A DNA stretch of 17,856 nt from the NCBI GenBank assembly GCA_964492595.1, contig CAZBKY010000013.1:1-17856 (forward strand). Reading direction: 5' to 3'. Made by a program: the position numbers and the translations under genes. A model generated the notes under the pieces. The model searched no databases. It was given only the letters and a program-made list of their open reading frames with translations, and was not told where the DNA came from. Origin of the DNA: an uncultured Muribaculaceae bacterium. GTDB taxonomy: Bacteria; Bacillota_I; Bacilli_A; RF39; UBA660. Below are positions 69-17,832 of the stretch, piece by piece; positions within the stretch are counted from its first letter, which is position 1, and every line of letters starts with the position of its first letter.

Positions 69-446
69 TTAATTTTGAATAACCGCAATTATTTTTTTAC
101 CATTTTTTGATATATTTATAATCATTGAGTTCATAAAATCATTGCTGGATGGATTTAACAAACAGCCAACTTCGCTAGTACAACCACTCTCGTTTTGTTT
201 AAAGTCAGCTTTTAAATATTCTGTTTCTAACAGAGTTTCAACAGTAATATTTTGGGGAAAATTTGTTATATTATCTTGGGCATATAATGAAGCGGCTGTT
301 TCTATAAGATTTACTTTGGTTTCATATTCTTTTTCTTTTACTGAATTATTTGAATTTGTTAACGAAAAAACTGCTATTACTATAACAATTGCAATAATTG
401 CAATAACCGCAATTAATTCCACTAATGTAAAACCTTTTTTATTCAT
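69..446 (-). CDS. Type IV pilin-like / competence-type pseudopilin with a prepilin N-terminal cleavage-methylation domain
   Basis: The N-terminus MNKKGFTLVELIAVIAIIAIVIVIAVF has the class III signal (G|FTLVE, Glu at +5) followed by a hydrophobic helix. ATG at 444-446 is preceded by GAGGAAAG. The stop is TAA. Confidence 0.8.
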   Translation of the reverse strand: MNKKGFTLVELIAVIAIIAIVIVIAVFSLTNSNNSVKEKEYETKVNLIETAASLYAQDNITNFPQNITVETLLETEYLKADFKQNESGCTSEVGCLLNPSSNDFMNSMIINISKNGKKIIAVIQN

Positions 447-3376: not shown

Positions 3377-3569
3377 AAATACCTCTTTTCCATATTATAG
3401 CACATGTATAGTATGGAGTATAAAATTTTTAAAAATAAACTTAATCTTTAAGTTTTTATTATTAATGTAAAAAATAATTGGTTAATATAGCTTAATGAAT
3501 TCAAAAGGATCAATGTCTATCATATGTTAAAATCACTATGGATACTCAATTGACTTTTACGACAACTTA

Positions 3570-3599
3570 TTGCGAAAATCATCATGGAAATGTTATAAT
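3570..3599 (+). promoter_or_regulatory. Candidate sigma-70-type promoter for the small membrane-protein ORF
   Basis: TTGCGA (3570-3575), an 18-nt spacer, then TGT-TATAAT (extended -10, 3594-3599), about 90 nt upstream of the ATG at 3691. Chance matches are common in AT-rich DNA. Confidence 0.3.
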
Positions 3600-3690
3600 A
3601 TTTATAGAGTTTAGTTCAAAAATATTTATGTTTGTTTTATTATAATTTATTGAAAAGTTTAAAAATTTTTGATTTGAAAGGAGATTTATC

Positions 3691-3894
3691 ATGAAACAAG
3701 AAAATTACACTCCAATTAAAATATTATCATTTTTATTCCCTGTTATCGGAGTAATATTTTATTTTATTGAAAGTGGAAAAAATCCTAAAAAAGCAAAAGC
3801 GATTTTAGGAGGTTTAAAGATATTATTTATATTAATAATAGTTATTATTTTTATAATAATTTCAGTAATGATACAAAGAAGTTCCACATACTAA
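3691..3894 (+). CDS. Small two-TM membrane protein, function unknown
   Basis: The 67-aa protein has two hydrophobic segments separated by a basic loop (GKNPKKAKA). There is a good RBS (AAAGGAGA) 7 nt upstream. This is the only convincing plus-strand gene. Confidence 0.55.
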   Translation: MKQENYTPIKILSFLFPVIGVIFYFIESGKNPKKAKAILGGLKILFILIIVIIFIIISVMIQRSSTY

Positions 3895-4313
3895 AATAAA
3901 ATTAAAGAAATAAAAGATTTAAATTGAAAGATTTTGCCCTACATTTATTACTATTTTACTCTTAAGTAAAATATTATTCTTTTGCTATTATTTCCGATTT
4001 TGTTATTAATCAACTCTAGCACGTATATTGTCGTTAGATTCACATATTCTAAATGCAACCTGCTCTGTTTCATAGAATGTATATAATGCAGAACAAGTTT
4101 CTTCAAAATCATTTTACTTTATTAGTGTTTTCGTTTGCTTTTTAAGCCTAGCTCTTATTTATACCCTTTACTTATAGATAGTTAGCCCTTTGAGGAGTGT
4201 CATAAAAAATGCTGAAAATGATATTTGATAATGCTAATTTGTTATAGTTTATAATATTAATAAAACAAAAATCTTGAAAATACTGAACTTCCAAGACTTT
4301 TTTAAATCAAAAA

Positions 4314-4829: not shown

Positions 4830-5876
4830 CTAAAATAATTTGAATATATCATTAAATGTAATATATACAAATAATGCTACCAATAAGAAAAATCCCACTG
4901 TATTTAATATGCCTTCTAATTTTTTATTTTTCTTTTTAGTTATTTTTTGAATTATCAGAAGTAATATTCTTCCTCCATCAAATACTGGTATTGGAAGCAA
5001 GTTAATTACCCCTATATTAATACTTAGATATGCAGTTAAATATATTAGATTTTCCAATCCCGCCCATTTAATTTCATCAATAACAGTGTAAATCCCTATA
5101 GGACCACTTAAATTATCAATTGAAATTGTACCAACAAACAAATTCTTAAGTATACTTACTATTGATTTTAACATATCCCAAAAACCACCTACTGAATATT
5201 TCAAAGCATTAACAAAACCATATGTTTTGGGATATGATATTGCAAAACCAAATACTTTTTGTAATTCACCCTCTATTTCTTTAATCTGAGGAATTACAAT
5301 AAATTTAGAAATATTTCCCGATCTTTCAACAACAAAAGTGTACTCTTCTTTTTCTTCTTTGACTGATATTTCTAAAAGTACATCATCCCAAGAAGATGTT
5401 TTTACTCCATTTATAGATTTTATTATATCTCCAGTTTGTATTCCTGCGATGTTTATAGCACTGCCACCCTCAACCTCTCCAACAATAGGTTTTGTTATAG
5501 GACTTCCATAAAACAAGCCATTTATAAAAAGTAAAAATATTGTTAATAAAAAATTCAGTAATATGCCCATTATTAAAACTGAAAATATTTGTATAAAATT
5601 TTTATTTTCTAAAACCTCTTCTTTTTTTATTTTCATCTGTGGATCTTCTTCGTTAGCCATTGACACATATCCACCAATTGGAAATGCTCTTATAGAATAT
5701 GTAGTCTCATCTTTTTTACTTTTACGACTCCATAACTTTGGTCCCATCCCTATAGCAAACTCATCAACATAAACTCCATTTTTCTTTGCCATTATAAAAT
5801 GTCCGAATTCATGAATTAAGATTATTACTCCAAGCATTAATACTAAAACCAAAAATGTTATTATAAAATTTATCAT
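4830..5876 (-). CDS. rseP: RIP metalloprotease RseP/YluC (site-2 protease, M50 family, with PDZ domain)
   Basis: It has the HEFGH zinc motif in TM1, a central PDZ-like segment (GGSAINIAGIQTGDIIKSINGV), and the C-terminal NLLPIPVFDGG motif. Confidence 0.9.
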   Translation of the reverse strand: MINFIITFLVLVLMLGVIILIHEFGHFIMAKKNGVYVDEFAIGMGPKLWSRKSKKDETTYSIRAFPIGGYVSMANEEDPQMKIKKEEVLENKNFIQIFSVLIMGILLNFLLTIFLLFINGLFYGSPITKPIVGEVEGGSAINIAGIQTGDIIKSINGVKTSSWDDVLLEISVKEEKEEYTFVVERSGNISKFIVIPQIKEIEGELQKVFGFAISYPKTYGFVNALKYSVGGFWDMLKSIVSILKNLFVGTISIDNLSGPIGIYTVIDEIKWAGLENLIYLTAYLSINIGVINLLPIPVFDGGRILLLIIQKITKKKNKKLEGILNTVGFFLLVALFVYITFNDIFKLF

Positions 5877-5882
5877 ATTTAC

Positions 5883-6692
5883 CTATATAATACTTATGAT
5901 AAGACAGAACGTTAATATTACAAATAATATACTGTCTAACCTATCAAGTATTCCTCCATGCCCTGGCATTATTTTGCCAAAATCTTTTATTTCGTATTGC
6001 CTTTTAATAAAACTAAAAAATAGATCTCCTAGTGCAGACATTATAGAAATAAACATCATAACTAAAATTAATAAAATTATACTCCCTGTATAATCAAAAG
6101 TAGTGATGTATATATATGTTGTAATGAATGTTCCAAATAAAAGTCCACCAATAAAACCTTCTACAGATTTATTAGGGGATATTGTAGGGCACATTTTATG
6201 CTTACCTATTAAAATTCCAACAATATACGCAAAAGTATCAGTAGAGATTGTAATTAATAAAATAAATATTAAATAGTATACATTATATTCCCTCATCATC
6301 ATAAGGGCACTGAAACCTAAAACTAAAAATATATTGAATCCAGAGAAAAATATTGCGTCTTCAATACTATATTTTTTATTATCATGATAAAATATCAAAG
6401 GTAAAAGCAGCAATAAAGTATTCAAAATCAAATATTTATATGGCATATTTAATATAAATTCATTATTATTTATATTTACTATCATCATTAAAAGAAAATT
6501 AGCTACTGTTATAATTTTAATTAATAATGGAACTTTTTTATCCTTTGATTTTGCTTTAATTAATTCCATAACCCCAATAACTCCCAGAATTATTACACCA
6601 ATTTTATAAAAATATCCACCAATAATAATCAAAGGTATTACTATTAAAAGTGCAACCAGAGCACTTATTATTCTCTGTTTCATATGAATCAC
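5883..6692 (-). CDS. cdsA: Phosphatidate cytidylyltransferase
   Basis: It is a polytopic membrane protein with the CdsA signature SFIKRQYEIKDFGKIMPGHGGILDRLDS. The start is either GTG at 6692 or ATG at 6683. Confidence 0.9.
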   Translation of the reverse strand: MIHMKQRIISALVALLIVIPLIIIGGYFYKIGVIILGVIGVMELIKAKSKDKKVPLLIKIITVANFLLMMIVNINNNEFILNMPYKYLILNTLLLLLPLIFYHDNKKYSIEDAIFFSGFNIFLVLGFSALMMMREYNVYYLIFILLITISTDTFAYIVGILIGKHKMCPTISPNKSVEGFIGGLLFGTFITTYIYITTFDYTGSIILLILVMMFISIMSALGDLFFSFIKRQYEIKDFGKIMPGHGGILDRLDSILFVILTFCLIISII

Positions 6693-6740
6693 TATCTTTC
6701 TACTCCAAATTATAACATAAAACTCCTATTTTATTCAACA

Positions 6741-7796
6741 TTATTTTAAAACATTTAAACTTATTAAATCTTTTCTATCAATTTTATTATACATTTTTAA
6801 AATAAAATTGTAACTATTTGCATGTTTAAAATGAGCTAAAAAACTATTCCATTCTAAAATCATTTTATTTTCATTCAACTTATTAAAAGAATTTAACTTA
6901 TTCCATAAATTTATTCTTTTTTTCATTTGAATTTTAGCTCTTTTTCTCAATAGTCTATGTGTCTCATATATTATATATCCACAAAAATTAATTCCTGATT
7001 TGTTAGGATAATAATTACTTTTGTTATTAAGCTCTAAATTCAAATTTTTATTTAAAAATTCTTCAATTATTTTTTTAAATCTTTTAGCATCATTTTTACT
7101 ATTTACAAGCAAAATAAAATCATCCATATATCTAACATAATATTTAACCTTTAATTTCTCTTTTATAAAATGATCTAAAATATCTAAATATATATTGGCA
7201 AAATATTGACTGGTATAATTTCCAATTGGTATACCAGTATCTTCACTGTCAAATATAAAAATTTCAGTTAAATGTAATATTTTTTTATCTGTAATAGCCT
7301 TTTTTAAAATATTAAATAATATATCTTTATCAATACTATAAAAAAAATTCTTTATATCACATTTTAAAATATAATATTTTTCATTTTTTCTTTTCATTAT
7401 TCTCATATATTTTTGTGCTTTATCCACAGCATAATGAGTACCTCTTTTTTCTATACAGGCACATGTATTACTTATAAATCTTTTAACAAAAAATGGTTTT
7501 ATAAATTCATAGATATACCACTGCTGAATGACCCTGTCTACATAAGGTAAAGATTTAATAACCCTCTTTTTGGGTTCATATACTGTAAAAGTTTTATATT
7601 TTCCAATTGAATATTTTTCATTTTTAAGTTTATTAATTATATTCCATAAATTTGTTTCTAAATCCATATTGAATTTTAATACATCCCTTTTATTTTTCTT
7701 GTTTTTTATAGATCTTTCATGAGCTTTTAACATTTTTTCAAAAGTTAAATTTTCATAAAACATATTTTTCATTGTTTTAGACATGAGTTTATCCAT
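6741..7796 (-). CDS. DGR-type reverse transcriptase
   Basis: RT motifs are present: RVIKSLPYVDRVIQQ, the DGR-diagnostic IPIGNYTSQYFANIYL ([I/L]GxxxSQ rather than the group II/retron QGxxxSP), and the catalytic YMDDFILL. The length (351 aa) fits. It is adjacent to avd and a TR/VR pair. The start is uncertain (in-frame ATGs at 7796, 7784, 7772 and 7763), and it overlaps the avd 3' end. Confidence 0.9.
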   Translation of the reverse strand: MDKLMSKTMKNMFYENLTFEKMLKAHERSIKNKKNKRDVLKFNMDLETNLWNIINKLKNEKYSIGKYKTFTVYEPKKRVIKSLPYVDRVIQQWYIYEFIKPFFVKRFISNTCACIEKRGTHYAVDKAQKYMRIMKRKNEKYYILKCDIKNFFYSIDKDILFNILKKAITDKKILHLTEIFIFDSEDTGIPIGNYTSQYFANIYLDILDHFIKEKLKVKYYVRYMDDFILLVNSKNDAKRFKKIIEEFLNKNLNLELNNKSNYYPNKSGINFCGYIIYETHRLLRKRAKIQMKKRINLWNKLNSFNKLNENKMILEWNSFLAHFKHANSYNFILKMYNKIDRKDLISLNVLK

Positions 7797-8125
7797 CCAC
7801 CTAATAAATTACATATATTAGTTATTTTTTTGCTCCATGAAGCATAATTTTTAATGCTAATATATTTTTTCTTATATGAAATTCTTATTAATATTTTTAA
7901 CATTTTCAAATTGACATCTAATTCTCCTAAAATATTTAACCTTACTTTTTTATCTCTAACTTTTTGAGCTTTTATTATTAATTTCATTCCATCATATGTA
8001 TTATTTTTTATTTGCACACATATATTTTTTCTTTCTATTTTGGGATATTTAATCAAAATATTTTCTGTATAATATATAAGCTCTAAATATTGCTTATAAA
8101 TTAATAAATCTTCTAAATCACTCAT
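7769..8125 (-). CDS. avd: Avd-like accessory variability determinant (small basic four-helix-bundle protein)
   Basis: The 118-aa, Lys/Arg-rich, predicted all-helical protein (LIYKQYLELIYYTENILIKYPKIERKNI...) sits immediately 5' of the RT, as in other DGRs. AAGGAG is the RBS. Its start overlaps the upstream gene's stop (ATGAGTGA). Confidence 0.75.
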   Translation of the reverse strand: MSDLEDLLIYKQYLELIYYTENILIKYPKIERKNICVQIKNNTYDGMKLIIKAQKVRDKKVRLNILGELDVNLKMLKILIRISYKKKYISIKNYASWSKKITNICNLLGGWINSCLKQ

Positions 8126-8486
8126 TAATTATCTCCTTTAATTCACCCAATACTCTAAGGGCCTCTATTGGGGTAAGATAATTAATATCTATTTTTTTTA
8201 ATTTCATTATTATTTTATCTGTTGGTTTTATTTCATTACATTCATCTATTATTTTAATATTTAATTTTAAATTATCAAATATTGAAATATATTTTTCTTT
8301 TGAGTTAATTGGAAAACCGCATTTAACTATATCTTTATTTAAATTTATTAATTTTAAAGTTGTTATTTTATTAATTTTAATTGCATCTTCATCTAAAAAT
8401 ATATAAAAATTACCACTTTTAAATAAATATAATGCCTCCTTATTTTCTTTTTTTAATTCTAAATACTTATTATATAATTTACTCAC
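8118..8486 (-). CDS. Mini-MutS-like protein (MutS domain I plus the MutS C-terminal helix motif); DGR accessory 'MSL'
   Basis: LYNKYLELKKENKEALYLFKSGNFYIFLDEDAIKINKITTLKL...KCGFPINSKEKYISIFDNLKLNIKIIDE aligns by eye with MutS domain I (QQYLxLKxxxPxxLLFFRxGDFYExFxxDA...xAGxPxHxxxxYxxKLxxxGxxVAICEQ). The C-terminal KKIDINYLTPIEALRVLGELKEI resembles the MutS ...LDxxxLTPxxALxxLxxLK motif. It uses a GTG start at 8486 with AAGGAG 8 nt upstream. Confidence 0.7.
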   Translation of the reverse strand: MSKLYNKYLELKKENKEALYLFKSGNFYIFLDEDAIKINKITTLKLINLNKDIVKCGFPINSKEKYISIFDNLKLNIKIIDECNEIKPTDKIIMKLKKIDINYLTPIEALRVLGELKEIINE

Positions 8487-8734
8487 TTTCTTACTCCTTT
8501 TTAATATTTAAAAAAGCAGTATTAACAAACGAACCATAAATAGTTCATTTAATTACTACTGCCTTGCGTAAAGTTTCATTTTCATCATTTTACTACTCAC
8601 ATAACTTCACTATCTATTTTTTTGTTCTTATTAAAGAACAGGAATTAAACTTCTACGATAAACATTACTTTATAATATCCTTAAATATTATAATTTGAAT
8701 GAAGAATATTATATTCTTATATATAGTAGTCTTA

Positions 8735-8868
8735 AACACAACCGACCGAAACGAAATGTTGCTGTTGGCACTACCGTTGTTGTTGTTCAAATTGAAGCCA
8801 CCCGCACCCACACCGTTGCTATAGTTACCACCTCGGTTGAACCACGGATTGGACGCATTTACAAAATA
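8735..8868 (-). repeat. DGR template repeat, copy 1 (TR1), 134 nt
   Basis: It aligns without gaps to 9056..9189. All 16 mismatches are T on the plus strand (A on the minus/coding strand) in the TR versus C/G/A in the VR. Read in the VR frame, the TR encodes YFVNASNPWFNRGGNYSNGVGAGGFNLNNNNGSANSNISFRSVV, with 12 AAY codons and, by my count, 32 adenines. It lies outside any ORF with a start codon. Confidence 0.92.
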
Positions 8869-8928
8869 TCTTTTACAGCTTAATCCCTATCTATTTAACA
8901 CCGAAGTGTATAGACCTTTTTAATTTTT

Positions 8929-8962
8929 ATACGAGTCCCCAAAAAAGTGTGGGGACTCGTAT
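8929..8962 (-). other. GC-rich 13-bp stem-loop between VR1 and TR1
   Basis: atacgagtcccca-[8 nt]-tggggactcgtat is a perfect stem. It is not followed by a U-tract on the minus (sense) strand. It is duplicated at 12717..12750. Confidence 0.6.
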
Positions 8963-9030
8963 GTTTTCACTTCTTTATTTTTATATGCTATTGTAATTCT
9001 ATGTACTTTTTTCCCTGATTTTAGAGTAAT

Positions 9031-9050
9031 ATTAGGCATAAATGCCTAAT
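9031..9050 (-). promoter_or_regulatory. Perfect palindrome/hairpin immediately 3' of VR1, overlapping the target stop codon (candidate DGR homing hairpin/cruciform)
   Basis: attaggcat-aa-atgcctaat is a 9+9-nt inverted repeat that starts 5 nt beyond the end of VR/TR homology. The TAG stop (9046-9048) lies inside it. It is absent downstream of the TR. It is duplicated at 12819..12838. Confidence 0.55.
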
Positions 9051-10992
9051 AAGTCAACACAACCGACCGAAACGAAACGCTGCCGCTGGCACTACCGTTG
9101 CTGTAGTACAAACTGAAGCCACCCGCACCCACACCGCGGCTATAGAAACCACCTCGGTAGAACCACGGAGCGGACGCACTTACAAAATAATTGAAATCTT
9201 TGTACCACGAATTTGTTTCTCCCAGAGCCTCTCCTAAATAACTTGTTTTACTTTGCCATCCTGATGAAGTATATAATTTGTAATATTTAGTGTTTGGATA
9301 ATCTAATCCAGTTATATTACTTGTTATACCTGAATCACATCCTGTATAACTTGGATTACCATATAATCCTTTGAATCCACTATCATATATATTGCATAAT
9401 CCTGAATATTTATCATTTGTGGCATTAGTATATACGCTCATTTGATATTCGTATGCTCCTCCAGACATATCAAATATACCCGTTATATTTCCTGTTGTGC
9501 TCTGGGGATATGATGAAGCTGCTCCATATGTTATTTCACAGCTTGAAGTAGCTGCCAGATTATCAGCACTTGCTCCACATCCTGTTTTATAACCCGAATT
9601 ATTGTTTATTCTTATTTCTGTGTTTATTCCATATACCGAGTGTGATAGGTAGGCTATTGCTCCCCATTCCGCATTTGTACTCATTTTACTTTCTGCCCTT
9701 AACCCGTATGCTGCATTTGATGAGAATTTTTGTGATGTAGCAAATTCTGTTGATACATTTTGACTTTTCCATGAAGTTATATTTGGTTTTACTGTTGGAT
9801 TTGCTGTTCCTACATTTGCGGCTGTTCCCTGTGTTGTTTCAAATTTTCCAACCCATATTCCATTTACTTCTCTTCCTCCATATGTAAATGCAGGATGGGT
9901 TAACTCACTTCCATTTGTTGTACCACTGCTTTTTGCTGTAACTGAATTTTCAAATGTTATTTCTATGCTCCTTGGACAATTTGCCGTACAGTTTGGGGTT
10001 GTCCATGTACCAGAGTTTGCTTCACATGTTGTTTGTGAATAATATGATGCATTTGAGCATCCTCCTGTATATGTTGAAGCAGTACCCGCTACATTCCATA
10101 ATGTGTATCTATATCTTGGTATCCATACTAAATATGCCAATATATCAGCTTCACTTACTGTTACATTATAGTTTGTTTGATAATATGCTCTACTATTTGT
10201 TCCGCTTTCTTTTACCAACACAACATTTGCCCATGACCCTGATGCATAACTATACCATGTACTATTTGGATTTGCTGTTGTTACTGTTCCGTTATTTGCT
10301 ATTGTTACTGGTATCATTCCTTCACTTATTCTTGGATATGCTCCATTTAATATACTCTCTTTATATAGGTTTGTTGTATATGATTTCCAACTTGATGTCT
10401 CCTCATTCCATGTTCTTACTCCCTCACCCTGTGCTATATCCACTTGCAATACCCCACTAAATACTTTTCCCTGTACTGCATTTTGATCTTTATGTATTTC
10501 TTTTAGTTCTATCTTAAAAGTATATGTATGTTTATCTTTTCCATTTAATATTCCATTATCACTTAATACATTGTTTCCTGTTTTTATTGGCACTGTTACA
10601 TCTGTCAAATTTATTATTGTTCCTCCATTTGTACTTGTACCACTTAGACTATACACAAACGCATCTTCACTTAGTGGAGTTATTTCATTTGTTGTTACAT
10701 TCAAAAATATTGCATATGATATTTGATCTTGGGCTGCTTCTGCTGCATTTTCTATTGTAAATGTTTTTGTTATACTCCATCCAGGGTATACTTTTGTTAC
10801 ATTTATTTCACTTCCATCTAAAAACACTATATTTCCTAAATTAACTGTTGTCACTATTACACTCGATGCTGTATCATTGCCTGTTACATTTATACTGAAA
10901 TATGCCACACTTACTGCAAAAAGTGCAGATAGTAACGCCGCTATCAACAATATTGTCATCAAACTTGAATGTCCTCTTTGCTTAATTTTCAT
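9046..10992 (-). CDS. DGR target protein, copy 1: secreted protein with a TasA/camelysin-like (SipW-type) N-terminal signal and beta-sandwich region and a C-terminal C-type-lectin/FGE-like variable domain
   Basis: The N-terminus MKIKQRGHSSLMTILLIAALLSALFAVSVAYFS... has the AYFS motif typical of SipW-cognate signals, followed by a TasA-like segment (VTKVYPGWSITKTFTIEN). The C-terminus has FGE/CLec-like motifs (MSTNAEWGAIAYLS; PWFYRGGFYSRGVGAGGFSLYYSN...SFRSVV). The VR occupies the last ~45 codons. Confidence 0.85.
   Translation of the reverse strand: MKIKQRGHSSLMTILLIAALLSALFAVSVAYFSINVTGNDTASSVIVTTVNLGNIVFLDGSEINVTKVYPGWSITKTFTIENAAEAAQDQISYAIFLNVTTNEITPLSEDAFVYSLSGTSTNGGTIINLTDVTVPIKTGNNVLSDNGILNGKDKHTYTFKIELKEIHKDQNAVQGKVFSGVLQVDIAQGEGVRTWNEETSSWKSYTTNLYKESILNGAYPRISEGMIPVTIANNGTVTTANPNSTWYSYASGSWANVVLVKESGTNSRAYYQTNYNVTVSEADILAYLVWIPRYRYTLWNVAGTASTYTGGCSNASYYSQTTCEANSGTWTTPNCTANCPRSIEITFENSVTAKSSGTTNGSELTHPAFTYGGREVNGIWVGKFETTQGTAANVGTANPTVKPNITSWKSQNVSTEFATSQKFSSNAAYGLRAESKMSTNAEWGAIAYLSHSVYGINTEIRINNNSGYKTGCGASADNLAATSSCEITYGAASSYPQSTTGNITGIFDMSGGAYEYQMSVYTNATNDKYSGLCNIYDSGFKGLYGNPSYTGCDSGITSNITGLDYPNTKYYKLYTSSGWQSKTSYLGEALGETNSWYKDFNYFVSASAPWFYRGGFYSRGVGAGGFSLYYSNGSASGSVSFRSVVLTY
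9056..9189 (-). repeat. DGR variable repeat, copy 1 (VR1), 134 nt
   Basis: See TR1. It encodes YFVSASAPWFYRGGFYSRGVGAGGFSLYYSNGSASGSVSFRSVV. The 3'-terminal 22 nt on the coding strand (TTTCGTTTCGGTCGGTTGTGTT) contain no A, are identical to the TR, and resemble an IMH-like anchor. Confidence 0.92.
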
Positions 10993-11017
10993 AATATCCT
11001 TCTACTTTTATACCTAA

Positions 11018-11046
11018 ATACTACCATTTTTTGACATTTACTTCAA
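11018..11046 (-). promoter_or_regulatory. Candidate promoter for the target gene (copy 1; the equivalent is at 14806..14834)
   Basis: On the minus strand: TTGAAG, 17 nt, TAGTAT preceded by TG, ending ~25 nt upstream of the ATG (RBS GAAGGA). Specificity is low in AT-rich DNA. Confidence 0.3.
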
Positions 11047-11140
11047 GTAAATATTTAAGACTTGTAAGAATATATGATTTTTTTTGTAAGAATTTCATTA
11101 ATTCAAAAAAACGATAAAATTTATCATTATTTTTTCGACA

Positions 11141-12327
11141 TTATTTTAAAATCTCTATTTTATTTAATACCAATTGATATTTATTCAATCTTCTTTCAAC
11201 CTTGCAATAAGCATTTATAACTATCATTTTCCTTAATGAGTTATATATCTCTTTATAATAAATTGGGAATACTACTCCATCTATACATCCATATTCATCA
11301 CTTAGTTTTAAAAATGCCATTTTATCATTATTTTTAGTTTTTATTTCTTTAATACTCTCAATTAATAAAATCATTCTTACATTCTTATCAAAATATTTAC
11401 TTATATTTAATATATTTATATCTCTTTTATATTTTGTAACAGGATGATTAGAAAAATAAAATCCTAAGAGTTCACTTTCACTCTCTAATAAATATGAATC
11501 ATCATATTCATCAAATAAGATAATTTCAGGTATTATTACATTATAATCACCAAGTTCCTGACATAATAAAGAATAATTTATTATTTCTTCTAAATTTTCT
11601 ATTAATGTTTTTTTATTATAATTAAATTTATCGAAAGCTCCTATCAATACCAAAGATTCCAATACTTTTTTATTAACTGCATTATTATAACACCTTACAG
11701 AAAAATCTAAAAAATCTTTAAAAATTTCATTATTCCTTTCCTTTAAAATCCTTTTTATTGCAATATCTCCTACATTTTTAACAATACCAAGAGGCAAAAT
11801 GATTTTATTGTTTTTATTGTAATATATATCTGCACTTTCATTTATATCTATCTCACCGAAATTTAAACCAAGTATTTTTGACTCATCTATATACTCTTTT
11901 GTCTTATTTCCCCTACCAATTTCCTTATTTAACAGATTAATCATAAATATATCTTTATAATTTGCCTTTAAATAGGCCATCTGATAACCAACCATAGCGT
12001 AAGCAACTGAATGAGATTTATTAAATCCATAGTTTGCGAATTTAATTATCAGATTATAAACTTCATTAATATCATTTTTATTAAATCCAAGTTTTAAACT
12101 TCTTTTTTCAAAATTAGTCCTTTCTTTTAATAATACTACTTCATCTTTACTTTTAATTGCTGATCTTATGATGTCAGCTTCAGCATACGTATAACCCGCC
12201 ATTACATTTAATATTTCAAGGAGCTGTTCTTGATAGATGATTATGCCTAAAGTATCTTTTAAAATACCTTCTAATTCTTTAACAGGATAAGTAACACTCT
12301 CTTTTCCTTCTCTTCTTCTTAGATAAG
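11141..12327 (-). pseudogene. 5'-truncated duplicate of dnaE (the C-terminal ~395 codons, created by the tandem duplication)
   Basis: It is identical to 14929..16115. The frame is closed by a TAA only a few codons upstream of the junction at 12327/12328. The first in-frame ATG is at 12202 (353 aa), and I see no obvious RBS there. Confidence 0.85.
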
Positions 12328-12522
12328 ATAGTTCATTTAATTACTACTGCCTTGCGTAAAGTTTCATTTTCATCATTTTACTACTCACATAACTTCACTA
12401 TCTATTTTTTTGTTCTTATTAAAGAACAGGAATTAAACTTCTACGATAAACATTACTTTATAATATCCTTAAATATTATAATTTGAATGAAGAATATTAT
12501 ATTCTTATATATAGTAGTCTTA

Positions 12523-12656
12523 AACACAACCGACCGAAACGAAATGTTGCTGTTGGCACTACCGTTGTTGTTGTTCAAATTGAAGCCACCCGCACCCACA
12601 CCGTTGCTATAGTTACCACCTCGGTTGAACCACGGATTGGACGCATTTACAAAATA
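12523..12656 (-). repeat. DGR template repeat, copy 2 (TR2)
   Basis: It is identical to TR1 (offset 3,788). It is followed by only 195 nt of the native TR-downstream spacer before the dnaE fragment begins. Confidence 0.9.
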
Positions 12657-12833
12657 TCTTTTACAGCTTAATCCCTATCTATTTAACACCGAAGTGTATA
12701 GACCTTTTTAATTTTTATACGAGTCCCCAAAAAAGTGTGGGGACTCGTATGTTTTCACTTCTTTATTTTTATATGCTATTGTAATTCTATGTACTTTTTT
12801 CCCTGATTTTAGAGTAATATTAGGCATAAATGC

Positions 12834-14780
12834 CTAATAAGTCAACACAACCGACCGAAACGAAACGCTGCCGCTGGCACTACCGTTGCTGTAGTACAAA
12901 CTGAAGCCACCCGCACCCACACCGCGGCTATAGAAACCACCTCGGTAGAACCACGGAGCGGACGCACTTACAAAATAATTGAAATCTTTGTACCACGAAT
13001 TTGTTTCTCCCAGAGCCTCTCCTAAATAACTTGTTTTACTTTGCCATCCTGATGAAGTATATAATTTGTAATATTTAGTGTTTGGATAATCTAATCCAGT
13101 TATATTACTTGTTATACCTGAATCACATCCTGTATAACTTGGATTACCATATAATCCTTTGAATCCACTATCATATATATTGCATAATCCTGAATATTTA
13201 TCATTTGTGGCATTAGTATATACGCTCATTTGATATTCGTATGCTCCTCCAGACATATCAAATATACCCGTTATATTTCCTGTTGTGCTCTGGGGATATG
13301 ATGAAGCTGCTCCATATGTTATTTCACAGCTTGAAGTAGCTGCCAGATTATCAGCACTTGCTCCACATCCTGTTTTATAACCCGAATTATTGTTTATTCT
13401 TATTTCTGTGTTTATTCCATATACCGAGTGTGATAGGTAGGCTATTGCTCCCCATTCCGCATTTGTACTCATTTTACTTTCTGCCCTTAACCCGTATGCT
13501 GCATTTGATGAGAATTTTTGTGATGTAGCAAATTCTGTTGATACATTTTGACTTTTCCATGAAGTTATATTTGGTTTTACTGTTGGATTTGCTGTTCCTA
13601 CATTTGCGGCTGTTCCCTGTGTTGTTTCAAATTTTCCAACCCATATTCCATTTACTTCTCTTCCTCCATATGTAAATGCAGGATGGGTTAACTCACTTCC
13701 ATTTGTTGTACCACTGCTTTTTGCTGTAACTGAATTTTCAAATGTTATTTCTATGCTCCTTGGACAATTTGCCGTACAGTTTGGGGTTGTCCATGTACCA
13801 GAGTTTGCTTCACATGTTGTTTGTGAATAATATGATGCATTTGAGCATCCTCCTGTATATGTTGAAGCAGTACCCGCTACATTCCATAATGTGTATCTAT
13901 ATCTTGGTATCCATACTAAATATGCCAATATATCAGCTTCACTTACTGTTACATTATAGTTTGTTTGATAATATGCTCTACTATTTGTTCCGCTTTCTTT
14001 TACCAACACAACATTTGCCCATGACCCTGATGCATAACTATACCATGTACTATTTGGATTTGCTGTTGTTACTGTTCCGTTATTTGCTATTGTTACTGGT
14101 ATCATTCCTTCACTTATTCTTGGATATGCTCCATTTAATATACTCTCTTTATATAGGTTTGTTGTATATGATTTCCAACTTGATGTCTCCTCATTCCATG
14201 TTCTTACTCCCTCACCCTGTGCTATATCCACTTGCAATACCCCACTAAATACTTTTCCCTGTACTGCATTTTGATCTTTATGTATTTCTTTTAGTTCTAT
14301 CTTAAAAGTATATGTATGTTTATCTTTTCCATTTAATATTCCATTATCACTTAATACATTGTTTCCTGTTTTTATTGGCACTGTTACATCTGTCAAATTT
14401 ATTATTGTTCCTCCATTTGTACTTGTACCACTTAGACTATACACAAACGCATCTTCACTTAGTGGAGTTATTTCATTTGTTGTTACATTCAAAAATATTG
14501 CATATGATATTTGATCTTGGGCTGCTTCTGCTGCATTTTCTATTGTAAATGTTTTTGTTATACTCCATCCAGGGTATACTTTTGTTACATTTATTTCACT
14601 TCCATCTAAAAACACTATATTTCCTAAATTAACTGTTGTCACTATTACACTCGATGCTGTATCATTGCCTGTTACATTTATACTGAAATATGCCACACTT
14701 ACTGCAAAAAGTGCAGATAGTAACGCCGCTATCAACAATATTGTCATCAAACTTGAATGTCCTCTTTGCTTAATTTTCAT
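12834..14780 (-). CDS. DGR target protein, copy 2 (identical 648-aa product)
   Basis: Its translation is identical to 9046..10992. Confidence 0.85.
   Translation of the reverse strand: MKIKQRGHSSLMTILLIAALLSALFAVSVAYFSINVTGNDTASSVIVTTVNLGNIVFLDGSEINVTKVYPGWSITKTFTIENAAEAAQDQISYAIFLNVTTNEITPLSEDAFVYSLSGTSTNGGTIINLTDVTVPIKTGNNVLSDNGILNGKDKHTYTFKIELKEIHKDQNAVQGKVFSGVLQVDIAQGEGVRTWNEETSSWKSYTTNLYKESILNGAYPRISEGMIPVTIANNGTVTTANPNSTWYSYASGSWANVVLVKESGTNSRAYYQTNYNVTVSEADILAYLVWIPRYRYTLWNVAGTASTYTGGCSNASYYSQTTCEANSGTWTTPNCTANCPRSIEITFENSVTAKSSGTTNGSELTHPAFTYGGREVNGIWVGKFETTQGTAANVGTANPTVKPNITSWKSQNVSTEFATSQKFSSNAAYGLRAESKMSTNAEWGAIAYLSHSVYGINTEIRINNNSGYKTGCGASADNLAATSSCEITYGAASSYPQSTTGNITGIFDMSGGAYEYQMSVYTNATNDKYSGLCNIYDSGFKGLYGNPSYTGCDSGITSNITGLDYPNTKYYKLYTSSGWQSKTSYLGEALGETNSWYKDFNYFVSASAPWFYRGGFYSRGVGAGGFSLYYSNGSASGSVSFRSVVLTY
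12844..12977 (-). repeat. DGR variable repeat, copy 2 (VR2)
   Basis: It is base-for-base identical to VR1, including all 16 substituted positions. Confidence 0.9.
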
Positions 14781-14928
14781 AATATCCTTCTACTTTTATA
14801 CCTAAATACTACCATTTTTTGACATTTACTTCAAGTAAATATTTAAGACTTGTAAGAATATATGATTTTTTTTGTAAGAATTTCATTAATTCAAAAAAAC
14901 GATAAAATTTATCATTATTTTTTCGACA

Positions 14929-17832
14929 TTATTTTAAAATCTCTATTTTATTTAATACCAATTGATATTTATTCAATCTTCTTTCAACCTTGCAATAAGC
15001 ATTTATAACTATCATTTTCCTTAATGAGTTATATATCTCTTTATAATAAATTGGGAATACTACTCCATCTATACATCCATATTCATCACTTAGTTTTAAA
15101 AATGCCATTTTATCATTATTTTTAGTTTTTATTTCTTTAATACTCTCAATTAATAAAATCATTCTTACATTCTTATCAAAATATTTACTTATATTTAATA
15201 TATTTATATCTCTTTTATATTTTGTAACAGGATGATTAGAAAAATAAAATCCTAAGAGTTCACTTTCACTCTCTAATAAATATGAATCATCATATTCATC
15301 AAATAAGATAATTTCAGGTATTATTACATTATAATCACCAAGTTCCTGACATAATAAAGAATAATTTATTATTTCTTCTAAATTTTCTATTAATGTTTTT
15401 TTATTATAATTAAATTTATCGAAAGCTCCTATCAATACCAAAGATTCCAATACTTTTTTATTAACTGCATTATTATAACACCTTACAGAAAAATCTAAAA
15501 AATCTTTAAAAATTTCATTATTCCTTTCCTTTAAAATCCTTTTTATTGCAATATCTCCTACATTTTTAACAATACCAAGAGGCAAAATGATTTTATTGTT
15601 TTTATTGTAATATATATCTGCACTTTCATTTATATCTATCTCACCGAAATTTAAACCAAGTATTTTTGACTCATCTATATACTCTTTTGTCTTATTTCCC
15701 CTACCAATTTCCTTATTTAACAGATTAATCATAAATATATCTTTATAATTTGCCTTTAAATAGGCCATCTGATAACCAACCATAGCGTAAGCAACTGAAT
15801 GAGATTTATTAAATCCATAGTTTGCGAATTTAATTATCAGATTATAAACTTCATTAATATCATTTTTATTAAATCCAAGTTTTAAACTTCTTTTTTCAAA
15901 ATTAGTCCTTTCTTTTAATAATACTACTTCATCTTTACTTTTAATTGCTGATCTTATGATGTCAGCTTCAGCATACGTATAACCCGCCATTACATTTAAT
16001 ATTTCAAGGAGCTGTTCTTGATAGATGATTATGCCTAAAGTATCTTTTAAAATACCTTCTAATTCTTTAACAGGATAAGTAACACTCTCTTTTCCTTCTC
16101 TTCTTCTTAGATAAGTTGGAATCATATTCATGGGTCCGGGTCTAAACATTGCAATTACTAAAACCAAGTCATCAAAATTCTTAACATTCATTTTACGTAA
16201 TAGATTTCTGATGCCTGAACTTTCATACTGAAATATTCCAGTAGTTTCTGCTTTATTAAACATCTCAATTGTTTTTGAATCATCCAAAGGGATATCATTT
16301 AGATTAATAAATTCTTTCGTATCTTCTTTTATTTTATTCAAAACTTCATCAATTATAGAAAGATTTCTGATACTAAGTAGATCTATTTTTAATATACCCA
16401 ACTCTTCAATATGTTTCTTGTCATAGCCAACTAGTATATTATTTCCGCTTTTAAATAATGGAACTTTATTAGTTAGAGGTTCACTATCTATAACAATTCC
16501 TGCAGCATGCACACTAGCATGCTTTTTTAATCCCTCCAATTCTTCACTTATATCCAGAAGTTTAACATACTCTTTATTAAATGAAATTAGAGATTTATAT
16601 TTTGAATTGCTCTCTAAATCATATAAACTATCTTTATCTTTTAATAAGCTAAGTAAAGTATCCATTTTCTTTACACTTATATTTAAAACTCTGCCAACAT
16701 CTCTTAGAACTTGTTTTGGAAGTAATGTACTGAAAGTAATAATATTGGCAACTTTATCATAACCATATTTAACTCTGACATATTCTATTAATTCTTCTCT
16801 TTTAATATCGCTTATATCTATATCTATATCGGGCATACTTAAGCGATTAGGATTTAAAAATCTTTCAAAAAGCAAATTATATTTTAATGGGTCTATATCT
16901 ATTATTCCAAGACTATAGCTTACTAAACTTCCCACGGCACTTCCTCTTCCGGGCCCGACATAGATATTATTTTTCTTGGCATACAAAACGATATCATAAA
17001 CTATTAGAAAATAATCTACATAACCAGTACTTTCAATTATTTCTAGCTCATAGAGTAATCTTTTTTTATATTTGTCTGGAACTTTATCATTTAATCTTTT
17101 TTCAAGTCCTCTCTTACACAAACTTTTTAAATATTCTATTGAATTAGATTTATATTTAGGTAATTTAAATGAAAATTTAGGGAGTTCTAAATTAATTTGT
17201 TTAATAAATTCTTCATTAGTTTTTATGTCAAAATCATTTATTTTTAAATTAAAACAATTGTTTTCAAATTTATATTCATTTATATCATCTATAGTTTTAC
17301 CATCTTTAATCATATATAAATATTTTAAATATTCATAATCAGATTCATTAAAGCATAAAACTTCATTCATATATAAAATATTATCCGTTATAATCAATGC
17401 TTCTTTTTTCTCCAGTTCATTTTTATAACTTAGGTACACATTATCAAATATTCTGGATAACAATTCATAGTTGCTGTTACTTTTATTTATTAAAACACAT
17501 ATTAAATCGTTACTGTTTTTTTCAATGTAATCAAAATTTAATATATTAATATTTTTTTCCGACACTATTTTGCATAAATTCTGGTAACCTTTAAAATTTT
17601 TAGCATATAATATAAATCGTATGTTTTCTACTTCTATATCTATACCGACAATAACTTTAATATTATTCTTTTTACATAATTCATAAAACTCTAAAAACGA
17701 GAATAAATTGCTATCAGTAACACCTAATACATTAATATTATTTTGTAATGCATAATTAATTAAATCATCTATTTTTATAATACTAGATAATAATTCATAA
17801 TTGGTTTTTATATTTAATGGCATTATACTCAT
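14929..17832 (-). CDS. dnaE: DNA polymerase III alpha subunit, DnaE type (967 aa)
   Basis: The layout is an N-terminal PHP-like region, then the Pol III alpha core (GPGRGSAVGSLVSYSLGI, MPDIDIDI, FNKSHSVAYAMVGYQMAYLK), then a C-terminal OB fold. The start is either ATG at 17832 or the Met at codon 4. Confidence 0.9.
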   Translation of the reverse strand: MSIMPLNIKTNYELLSSIIKIDDLINYALQNNINVLGVTDSNLFSFLEFYELCKKNNIKVIVGIDIEVENIRFILYAKNFKGYQNLCKIVSEKNINILNFDYIEKNSNDLICVLINKSNSNYELLSRIFDNVYLSYKNELEKKEALIITDNILYMNEVLCFNESDYEYLKYLYMIKDGKTIDDINEYKFENNCFNLKINDFDIKTNEEFIKQINLELPKFSFKLPKYKSNSIEYLKSLCKRGLEKRLNDKVPDKYKKRLLYELEIIESTGYVDYFLIVYDIVLYAKKNNIYVGPGRGSAVGSLVSYSLGIIDIDPLKYNLLFERFLNPNRLSMPDIDIDISDIKREELIEYVRVKYGYDKVANIITFSTLLPKQVLRDVGRVLNISVKKMDTLLSLLKDKDSLYDLESNSKYKSLISFNKEYVKLLDISEELEGLKKHASVHAAGIVIDSEPLTNKVPLFKSGNNILVGYDKKHIEELGILKIDLLSIRNLSIIDEVLNKIKEDTKEFINLNDIPLDDSKTIEMFNKAETTGIFQYESSGIRNLLRKMNVKNFDDLVLVIAMFRPGPMNMIPTYLRRREGKESVTYPVKELEGILKDTLGIIIYQEQLLEILNVMAGYTYAEADIIRSAIKSKDEVVLLKERTNFEKRSLKLGFNKNDINEVYNLIIKFANYGFNKSHSVAYAMVGYQMAYLKANYKDIFMINLLNKEIGRGNKTKEYIDESKILGLNFGEIDINESADIYYNKNNKIILPLGIVKNVGDIAIKRILKERNNEIFKDFLDFSVRCYNNAVNKKVLESLVLIGAFDKFNYNKKTLIENLEEIINYSLLCQELGDYNVIIPEIILFDEYDDSYLLESESELLGFYFSNHPVTKYKRDINILNISKYFDKNVRMILLIESIKEIKTKNNDKMAFLKLSDEYGCIDGVVFPIYYKEIYNSLRKMIVINAYCKVERRLNKYQLVLNKIEILK

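Follow-up and report, generated by a model that had tools for sequence, protein, structure and literature searches.

A diversity-generating retroelement (DGR) is recognised by a template repeat (TR) and a variable repeat (VR) that differ exclusively, or almost so, at adenines of the TR, the VR lying inside an ORF, typically at the C-terminus of a CLec-fold protein. The reverse transcriptase (RT) of these elements carries (I/V/L)GxxxSQ in region 4 and YxDD in region 5 (PMC3521204). RT-1 to RT-19 are motifs found near RT genes; RT-10 lies between the TR and brt of phage BPP-1, other RT motifs were speculated to belong to other DGRs, and RT-14 was given no function (Weinberg et al. 2017, PMC5737381). 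Efficient retrohoming in BPP-1 needs a hairpin/cruciform, and many VRs have a similar structure with 7-10 bp stems and 4-nt loops, located 4-34 bp downstream (Guo et al. 2011, PMC3240598). Among 372 DGRs, 16 encode a small MutS-like protein (MSL), in each case together with avd and in no case with HRDC, an arrangement named 'Architecture D' (Wu et al. 2017 NAR, PMC5758913). Msl has also been reported in the Bfr, Bth and Bun DGRs of Bacteroides, where knock-out of the host mutS gene is reported to raise retrohoming 5- to 10-fold (bioRxiv 10.1101/2024.11.15.621889), and a Legionella DGR with MSL has been reported. Here we describe a DGR of this type in contig CAZBKY010000013.1 (assembly GCA_964492595.1), analysed over a stretch of 17,856 nt, hereafter the window, which has a GC content of 27% and belongs to an AT-rich, uncultured gut Bacilli-type genome. 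We are highly confident that the element is a chromosomal MSL-type DGR of Architecture D, for which a mechanism is proposed below. The initial annotation had called it a complete chromosomal DGR with an adenine-only mismatch pattern, and every test run supported this.

The TR and the VR align without gaps over 134 nt and differ at 16 positions. All 16 mismatches are located at TR adenines, nine of which are G, five T and two C in the VR, and none at any other base, which is the pattern that defines DGRs. The TR contains 32 adenines besides 39 T, 37 G and 26 C, and the hypergeometric probability of finding every one of the 16 mismatches at an adenine is P≈3e-12. Twelve AAY codons are present in the TR when it is read in the target frame, and 11 of the 12 are changed in the VR. 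The 3' terminal 22 nt (TTTCGTTTCGGTCGGTTGTGTT) are A-free and the same in both repeats. The 134-nt gapless pair with its 16 differences, the restriction of these to adenines, the counts of 32 adenines and 12 AAY codons and the identical A-free end had all been read from the letters in the initial annotation, and pairwise alignment and counting in the target frame reproduced each of them.

All the elements of the cassette lie on the minus strand in the order target/VR, TR, spacer, msl, avd and RT, as first annotated; the spacer, estimated at ~250 nt, measures 248 nt. The RT carries the IGNYTSQ and YMDD motifs, which agree with the IGNxxSQ and YMDD signature noted earlier. Its top match in the PDB is the Bordetella bRT (8ub7, E 1.6e-43, 152.6 bits), and the best group II RT scores 62.1 bits. 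On its motifs and PDB ranking the enzyme is assigned to the DGR clade. The NCBI-annotated form of the protein starts from 7784 (347 aa), and a start at 7772 within an ATGA overlap is also possible. The gene that precedes the RT, previously described as Avd-like, matches the bAvd family above its cut-off (Table 1). We compared the locus with 84 related loci, giving a set of 85 sequences. The order target, msl, avd and RT with the same target family is found in 17 of them including the window (16 related loci), and msl adjoins avd and/or RT in nearly all 85. A VR/TR pair is located upstream of msl in 14 related loci, with mismatches mostly at TR adenines and exclusively so in three; in these 14 relatives the VR lies ~320 nt upstream of the TR, and the TR 181-255 nt before msl.

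The third gene of the cassette encodes MSL, a protein that ends after ~120 aa and carries no ATPase domain. Its AlphaFold (AF2) model (pLDDT 89) ends in a helix-loop-helix, and Foldseek superimposes it on MutS domain I with a root-mean-square deviation of 1.5-2.3 A over ~83 residues (prob 1.0). The MutS_I match and this fold agree with the annotation of the gene as mutS-like. PDB entries for MutS E38T/A/Q bound to a G.T mismatch are among the fold matches. In an alignment of 26 MSLs the GxFY motif is invariant, so the Phe that forms the mismatch wedge is kept, and I, V or L stands in place of the Glu of Phe-X-Glu in 26/26 sequences (Ile in the window MSL). MutS mismatch-repair proteins are recognised by Phe-X-Glu together with the ABC ATPase domain V, and MSL has neither the complete motif nor the domain. 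Since the Glu is replaced and the connector, core, clamp and ATPase domains are missing, MSL is not a repair enzyme. Mutants of E. coli MutS at Glu38 still bind mismatches and no longer authorise repair. The retained Phe, the lost Glu, the lack of an ATPase and the effect of mutS in Bacteroides make mismatch binding without licensing of repair the most plausible function of MSL. It would then most plausibly protect the heteroduplex of cDNA and VR against the mismatch repair of the host. Retention of the Phe with loss of the Glu throughout the family provides a testable hypothesis for MSL, one that fits the reported suppression of retrohoming by host MutS in Bacteroides.

The tail of MSL (residues 88-121) follows the pattern K-I-K-x-I-D-I-x-x-I-T-P-x-x-A-L-x-I-L-x-x-L-K. 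An MSL-only profile gives a weak co-linear match to the C-terminus of E. coli MutS (residues 822-852; conditional E ~1e-3, 3-6 bits), and full-length MutS outscores 800-residue truncations by ~5 bits with this profile. The fold search of the MSL model reported domain I only. These values give a weak hint that the tail may share the oligomerisation helices of the MutS C-terminus, a lead rather than a finding. If the tail match is true, MSL would consist of MutS domain I joined to the C-terminal oligomerisation helices. The family of small stand-alone MutS_I proteins numbers at least 692 sequences. In the window, msl and avd are adjacent with overlapping frames, and no HRDC match was found among the window ORFs (open reading frames) scanned, which is the composition of Architecture D. 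The accessory set had been singled out as deserving attention; the MSL and Avd pair is already catalogued under that name and known from Bacteroides DGRs as well.

The spacer between the TR and msl is a structured RNA. Its core is conserved in ~10 independent lineages, and RNAalifold predicts two helices with compensatory changes at 11/13 pairs. In the alignment used (A6), 95.3% of cells are paired, compared to 71.9% after shuffling (reached in 0/500 shuffles) and 38-52% with slid partners. This alignment includes L021, L024, L025 and L028, all of which score above the gathering threshold of the Rfam family RF02921 (RT-14), so the covariation holds with bona fide members. Homologous spacers at the same position in relatives score 51-100 bits, above the RT-14 threshold, and RT-14 is located immediately 3' of the DGR TR in every examined locus that has a TR. 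Given this position in MSL-type DGRs, RT-14 is likely to correspond to the spacer RNA from which cDNA synthesis is primed in Bordetella. By the same analogy, RT-14 may itself prime cDNA synthesis. RT-14, until now an orphan Rfam motif, thereby gains a context as the TR-adjacent RNA of MSL-type DGRs.

Between the RT-14 RNA and the ribosome-binding site (RBS) of msl lies a terminator-like hairpin followed by a U-run, and relatives carry GCAGTA...TACTGC and a T-run at this site. The initial annotation had proposed one operon from the overlaps between the last three genes. These overlaps are present (28 nt for avd/RT and 8 nt, ATGAGTGA, for msl/avd) and hold for msl-avd-RT. Because RT-14 and the terminator-like hairpin separate the TR from msl, the operon probably comprises msl-avd-RT only, and the TR RNA may be a partly separate transcript.

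A second hairpin, of the cruciform type, is located 4 nt after the VR and spans the stop codon of the target gene. Its fold has a z score of -3.9, and 0/200 shuffles were as good. Folding found nothing comparable after the TR. A further stem-loop separates the TR from the stop codon of the target gene. The terminator scan returned it with a T-run on the plus strand, which is not expected to carry a gene there. It may be a terminator, or it may insulate the target from the TR transcript.

By analogy with the Bordetella phage DGR, the RT-Avd complex would bind the RNA formed by the TR and the RT-14 spacer and synthesise cDNA with misincorporation opposite template adenines. This cDNA would then replace the VR, with the A-free 22-nt 3' end as homing anchor and the VR-proximal hairpin marking the recipient. 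Bound to the cDNA:VR heteroduplex with its many mismatches, MSL would prevent host mismatch repair from bringing back the parental VR. Up to 14 residues would be diversified on the ligand-binding surface of the CLec fold, 12 of them being Asn codons in the TR; these 12 AAY codons alone would give at least 1.3e14 C-terminal variants of a secreted or surface protein. The present-day diversifying activity of the DGR is inferred. Several points weigh against this reading. The window Avd scores 69.5 bits with the NCBIfam model DivGenRetAVD, under the equivalog cut-off of 80. The window copy of RT-14 scores 41.5 bits, under the Rfam gathering score of 48.1, because its outer stem is missing. The VR hairpin fits the geometry described by Guo et al., but its stem is AT-rich with a TTTA loop, not GC-rich with a GRNA loop as in the phage. 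MutS has been reported not to be required for retrohoming in Bordetella. Finally, the two copies of the VR present in the window (see below) are identical, so there has been no retrohoming since the duplication if both are real.

Table 1. Coordinates of the features of the DGR cassette, its duplication and its flanks in the window.
Feature	Coordinates	Strand	Details
rseP	4830..5876		Next after cdsA
cdsA	5883..6692	-	Downstream chromosomal flank; Pfam and NCBIfam matches
22-nt direct repeat, cdsA-proximal cassette end	6730..6751		At RT stop codon; 20/22 identical to 11130..11151
DGR reverse transcriptase	6741..7796	-	351-aa ORF; RVT_1 69.7 bits
avd accessory gene	7769..8125	-	118 aa; PF22296 bAvd 70.9 bits, cut-off 40
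msl	8118..8486	-	122 aa, GTG start; MutS domain I and helix-loop-helix tail; PF01624 MutS_I 43.8 bits
Terminator-like hairpin and U-run	8507..8565	-	Hairpin 8513..8565, U-run 8507..8512; between spacer RNA and msl RBS; fold -21.4 kcal/mol
Structured spacer RNA, divergent RF02921 RT-14	8567..8704	-	Directly 3' of TR; 41.5 bits, E 1.2e-4, model 1-144
TR1, template repeat copy 1	8735..8868	-	32 A, 12 AAY codons
14-bp stem-loop	8928..8963	-	Between target stop codon and TR; DNA fold -13.8 kcal/mol, z -5.0
Inverted repeat, hairpin/cruciform type	9030..9051	-	9-bp stem, loop TTTA; 4 nt after VR, spans target stop codon
VR1, variable repeat copy 1	9056..9189	-	Encodes target residues 602-646
Target gene copy 1	9046..10992	-	648 aa; N-terminal signal/anchor and beta-rich domain of uncertain family
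Duplication unit copy 1	8540..12327		3788 nt; 100% identical to 12328..16115
22-nt direct repeat, dnaE-proximal cassette end	11130..11151		At dnaE stop codon; copied to 14918..14939 by duplication
dnaE 3' fragment	11141..12327	-	Duplication by-product, from codon 573; residual 353-aa ORF 11141..12202
Duplication unit copy 2	12328..16115		3788 nt; RT-14 copy 2, TR2, VR2, target copy 2, 3' part of intact dnaE
RT-14 copy 2	12355..12492		Without 3' half of terminator hairpin
TR2	12523..12656	-	Identical to TR1
Target gene copy 2	12834..14780	-	648 aa, identical to copy 1
VR2	12844..12977	-	Identical to VR1
dnaE	14929..17832	-	Intact DNA polymerase III alpha, 967 aa; upstream chromosomal flank; Pfam and NCBIfam matches

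The target protein was recognised by its fold. By sequence, neither Pfam nor NCBIfam offered a family at E<0.01, and the PDB gave no match at E<1; the Pfam FGE-sulfatase match was weak (E 0.013). Residues ~210-648 form a conserved module ending in the CLec-type VR domain, modelled by AF2 with pLDDT >90, and the top three Foldseek matches are chains of the Thermus aquaticus variable protein TaqVP (5vf4; E 3.6e-9, prob 1.0), so that fold recognition came from the structure search only. On this model the VR (residues 602-646 of 648) occupies the C-terminus of a CLec-fold protein, as expected of a DGR target. The family comprises 1772 detectable homologs, most of which share only the C-terminal two-thirds; a few are annotated as FGE-sulfatase. 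Most relatives have at their start a ComGC-like type IV prepilin leader that passes the TIGR02532 cut-off. The window target has no match to this N_methyl leader (PF07963/TIGR02532, G|FxxxE), and it is not a type IV pilin by this measure; its N-terminal module and that of its two closest homologs differ from the pilin-type relatives. An AYFS-type leader prompted a comparison with TasA/camelysin. Peptidase_M73 (PF12389) reaches 17.0 bits (E 0.005, first 201 aa) for a gathering score of 22.5; the two closest homologs and NCBIfam gave no match, and the Foldseek match to TasA 5of1 (E 0.067) falls in a low-confidence region. This reading is unproven and we did not accept it. Overall, the family points to DGR-diversified pilus adhesins in gut Bacilli, outside Bacteroides.

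Beside the tRNA-Thr gene, a 125-aa ORF at 69-446 (-) matches the prepilin N-methylation motif PF07963 with 32.4 bits, so that machinery for a type IV pilus or a competence pseudopilus is probably present in the host. This pilin-type ORF bears on the target, since most target relatives are pilin-linked.

The closest homolog of the target, P0002 (L017 10001-11830, 59% identity), is encoded in the same metagenome-assembled genome (MAG) as the locus L001 and has the same non-pilin N-terminus. Within the glycolytic operon its gene stands on its own between gap and pgk, ends in a VR-like C-terminus and adjoins a gene with an ORF6N domain. No TR or RT was found within 10 kb. P0002 is therefore an orphan, or else a target served from elsewhere. 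We rejected it as a remote target of the window TR: its VR-like end differs at non-A positions and no RT is nearby.

Scanning the window with the TR returned four repeat copies, not two. The initial annotation had treated the element as a single TR/VR/target module, and its coordinates cover one of two copies. The two units are arranged head-to-tail, and each spans the spacer RNA, one TR, one VR, a complete target gene and the 3' 40% of dnaE. The two copies meet at 12327/12328, where TTCTTAGATAAG is followed by ATAGTTCATTTA. A microhomology (ATAA) was considered at this junction and discarded, as exact mapping offset it by one base; the junction is effectively blunt. The breakpoint at 8540 is the first apical-loop nucleotide of the terminator-like hairpin, so that the hairpin downstream of TR2 is destroyed (from -21.4 to -7.0 kcal/mol). 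No repeat of at least 500 nt was found in the other 84 sequences, making the window the only duplication among the 85.

We lean slightly towards a real and recent event, in which the target and the TR were amplified with the 3' end of dnaE as a passenger, which would let two targets diversify independently and yield two TR transcripts. The duplicated stretch lies inside the contig and is not an overlap of the contig ends, an assembler needs reads to build the novel junction of TTCTTAGATAAG with ATAGTTCATTTA, and dnaE and all the DGR genes are left intact. Moreover, a breakpoint exactly in the apical loop of a strong hairpin is typical of replication slippage or template switching. Against a real event, the identical VRs mean that no retrohoming has occurred since, the 84 related sequences offer no precedent, TR2 has no terminator, and large perfect tandem repeats are unstable. 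The same locus could have been produced by assembly, through a graph loop traversed twice or a chimeric junction, the true genome then carrying a plain single-target DGR. This is a serious alternative, to which we give somewhat less credence. Perfect identity over 3788 nt including the hypervariable VR is what one graph node read twice would give, the window is essentially an entire MAG contig (17.86 kb; the database forms of three of its proteins each lie on one contig of 17,858 nt), and no repeat of at least 500 nt occurs in the 84 other sequences. Identical VRs in tandem targets have also been flagged as a probable assembly error (Wu et al. 2017, PMC5758913). The internal position, the junction, the hairpin-loop breakpoint and the intact genes argue against an artefact. 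On balance, a duplication that is real and very recent, or present in a subpopulation, is narrowly preferred. If it is real, the locus shows how multi-target DGRs can arise. A further-reaching reading, which we regard as rather doubtful, combines a real duplication, with the DGR caught in passing from one to two modules, with an MSL that is a 'mini-MutS' decoy and shields the heteroduplex or poisons host MutS and so raises retrohoming.

The A-only pattern could instead record the past activity of a DGR that was recently inactivated. The identity of VR1 and VR2, the missing outer stem of the window RT-14 and the decay seen in relatives, where two loci have no separate TR (L021/L023) and a third (L024) has a fragmented RT and 7/22 non-A mismatches, are in keeping with such a fossil. 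However, RT, avd and msl are intact with their catalytic and signature motifs, the VR hairpin and the A-free anchor are preserved, and there are zero non-A differences over 134 nt, the very differences that decaying relatives accumulate. We therefore regard a fossil as improbable. That the RT is instead of the group II intron, retron or defence type, with a coincidental TR/VR repeat, is already refuted and has a negligible probability: the best NCBIfam model is the group II RT/maturase TIGR04416 (102.5 bits), followed by weaker Drt3a and retron RT matches, and NCBIfam returned no DGR RT model, but all these scores are far under their cut-offs (300 for TIGR04416), the DGR bRT ranks first in the PDB search by 90 bits, the SQ motif stands in place of QGxxxSP, the Rfam scan of the window detected neither a group II intron nor a retron RNA, and the adenine-only pattern (P≈3e-12) is not that of a chance repeat.

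In a related lineage, at L021 9560-10003 and L023 20-311 a VR-like 3' end of the target runs into TR-type sequence, with RT-14 located 3 nt past the stop codon. No separate TR was found within 4.4 kb around the cassette of this lineage, and two samples are alike; recombination between VR and TR probably deleted ~320 nt and killed the template. At L024 9156-11112, 7/22 TR/VR mismatches are non-A, all that is left of the RT is a 119-aa fragment, and two Y2-transposase ORFs immediately precede the target. The same parts are arranged differently in a human-gut lineage that is very common (L040-L089, 31 loci, e.g. L041 4001-6368 and L049 4001-6530), with msl on the strand opposite to the downstream RT and avd. 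RT-14 (81-100 bits) is located between msl and the RT there, on the RT strand, in contigs of up to 255 kb.

Housekeeping genes flank the cassette on both sides, consistent with the chromosomal location first assigned to it: dnaE upstream and, downstream, cdsA, rseP, tRNA-Arg, uppS, an Rrf2 regulator, nifS, nifU and tRNA-Thr. The closest relatives of the window DnaE come from gut MAGs (84% and 70% amino acid identity), and further ones from Bacilli/Erysipelotrichaceae/'Clostridium sp. CAG:1000' MAGs (~50%). In the two nearest genomes (L001 and L002) dnaE is followed directly by cdsA-rseP and the DGR cassette is absent from both. The cassette is therefore a ~4.4-kb insertion between dnaE and cdsA. 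Its two ends carry a 22-nt direct repeat, of which the empty site of L001 (12880-13000) has a single copy, as has that of L002. A 20/22 match was reached by 0/1946 random segment pairs, and the last residues of the window RT (NVLK*) are not common to related RTs; for these two reasons the repeat looks like a duplicated insertion site that supplied the final codons of the RT. Its sequence would suit a long target-site duplication or an insertion by short homology. The cassette contains no recombinase gene. Comparison of the empty and filled sites together with the 22-nt repeat gives a rare precise view of the arrival of a non-phage DGR cassette in a chromosome.

The records of both L001 and L002 are labelled 'uncultured Muribaculaceae bacterium'. 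Since the same MAG encodes Spo0A (L017 13885-14646) and the dnaE gene groups with Bacilli/Erysipelotrichaceae MAGs, this label is probably wrong. The position of uppS relative to cdsA-rseP is not as in L001. Between uppS and tRNA-Arg, a stretch of ~0.9 kb (3377-4313) contains a single short ORF (3691-3894) without a family and gave no Rfam match. No second sample of the element was present in the collections searched, in which its protein clusters are single-member and exact-sequence look-ups of RT, target and MSL returned no contig. The 3' 22-mer of the TR had no match in species-representative reference genomes, so that the genome is not one of them. A promoter scan of the window returned 68 sites for 72 expected by chance and is uninformative in such AT-rich DNA.

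Taken as a DGR the element brings little that is new, since its class, its MSL accessory gene and the CLec fold of its target have been described before. Its sole unusual feature is the perfect 3.8-kb tandem duplication of template and target, which may be an assembly artefact. The individual components compare with their known counterparts as follows. The window MSL shares with bacterial MutS the domain I fold and the GxFY wedge motif, and weakly its tail, but has no connector, core, clamp or ATPase domain and replaces the Glu of Phe-X-Glu by I, V or L, as do its relatives. The window RT-14 resembles the Rfam family in its full-length alignment, internal helices, conserved loops and place by the RT cluster, and differs by the missing outermost stem. 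TaqVP (5vf4) and other CLec variable proteins, the former being the top structural match, have in common with the window target a VR at the C-terminal end of the fold. However, identity to TaqVP is only 15-16%, with TM-scores of ~0.3-0.5, and the window target, at 648 aa, is a far larger protein that also has a central domain and, at its N-terminus, an additional module of ~200 aa.

The DGR of Bordetella phage BPP-1 (mtd-avd-TR-brt) shares with the window element a homologous RT (E 1.6e-43), Avd, adenine-specific changes, an A-free 3' end, a structured RNA directly 3' of the TR and a hairpin with a 4-nt loop a few nt after the VR but not after the TR. Unlike in BPP-1, where the order is avd-TR-brt, the TR here precedes msl-avd-RT, and msl is an additional gene. 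The spacer RNA is RT-14 instead of RT-10, and the hairpin is AT-rich with a TTTA loop instead of GC-rich with a GRNA loop. BPP-1 is phage-borne, whereas the window element is chromosomal and its target is not a tail fibre. The MSL DGRs described by Wu et al. and in Bacteroides are alike in combining a small MutS-domain-I protein with avd and a DGR RT, in having no HRDC and in carrying the VR at the C-terminus, and the window MSL, at 122 aa, is within the reported range of 112-283 aa. The window element differs from them in its host, a gut Bacilli-type MAG, in its insertion site between dnaE and cdsA, in the tandem duplication of TR and target, and in a target that is kin to CLec proteins linked to type IV pilins, not to type V pilins.

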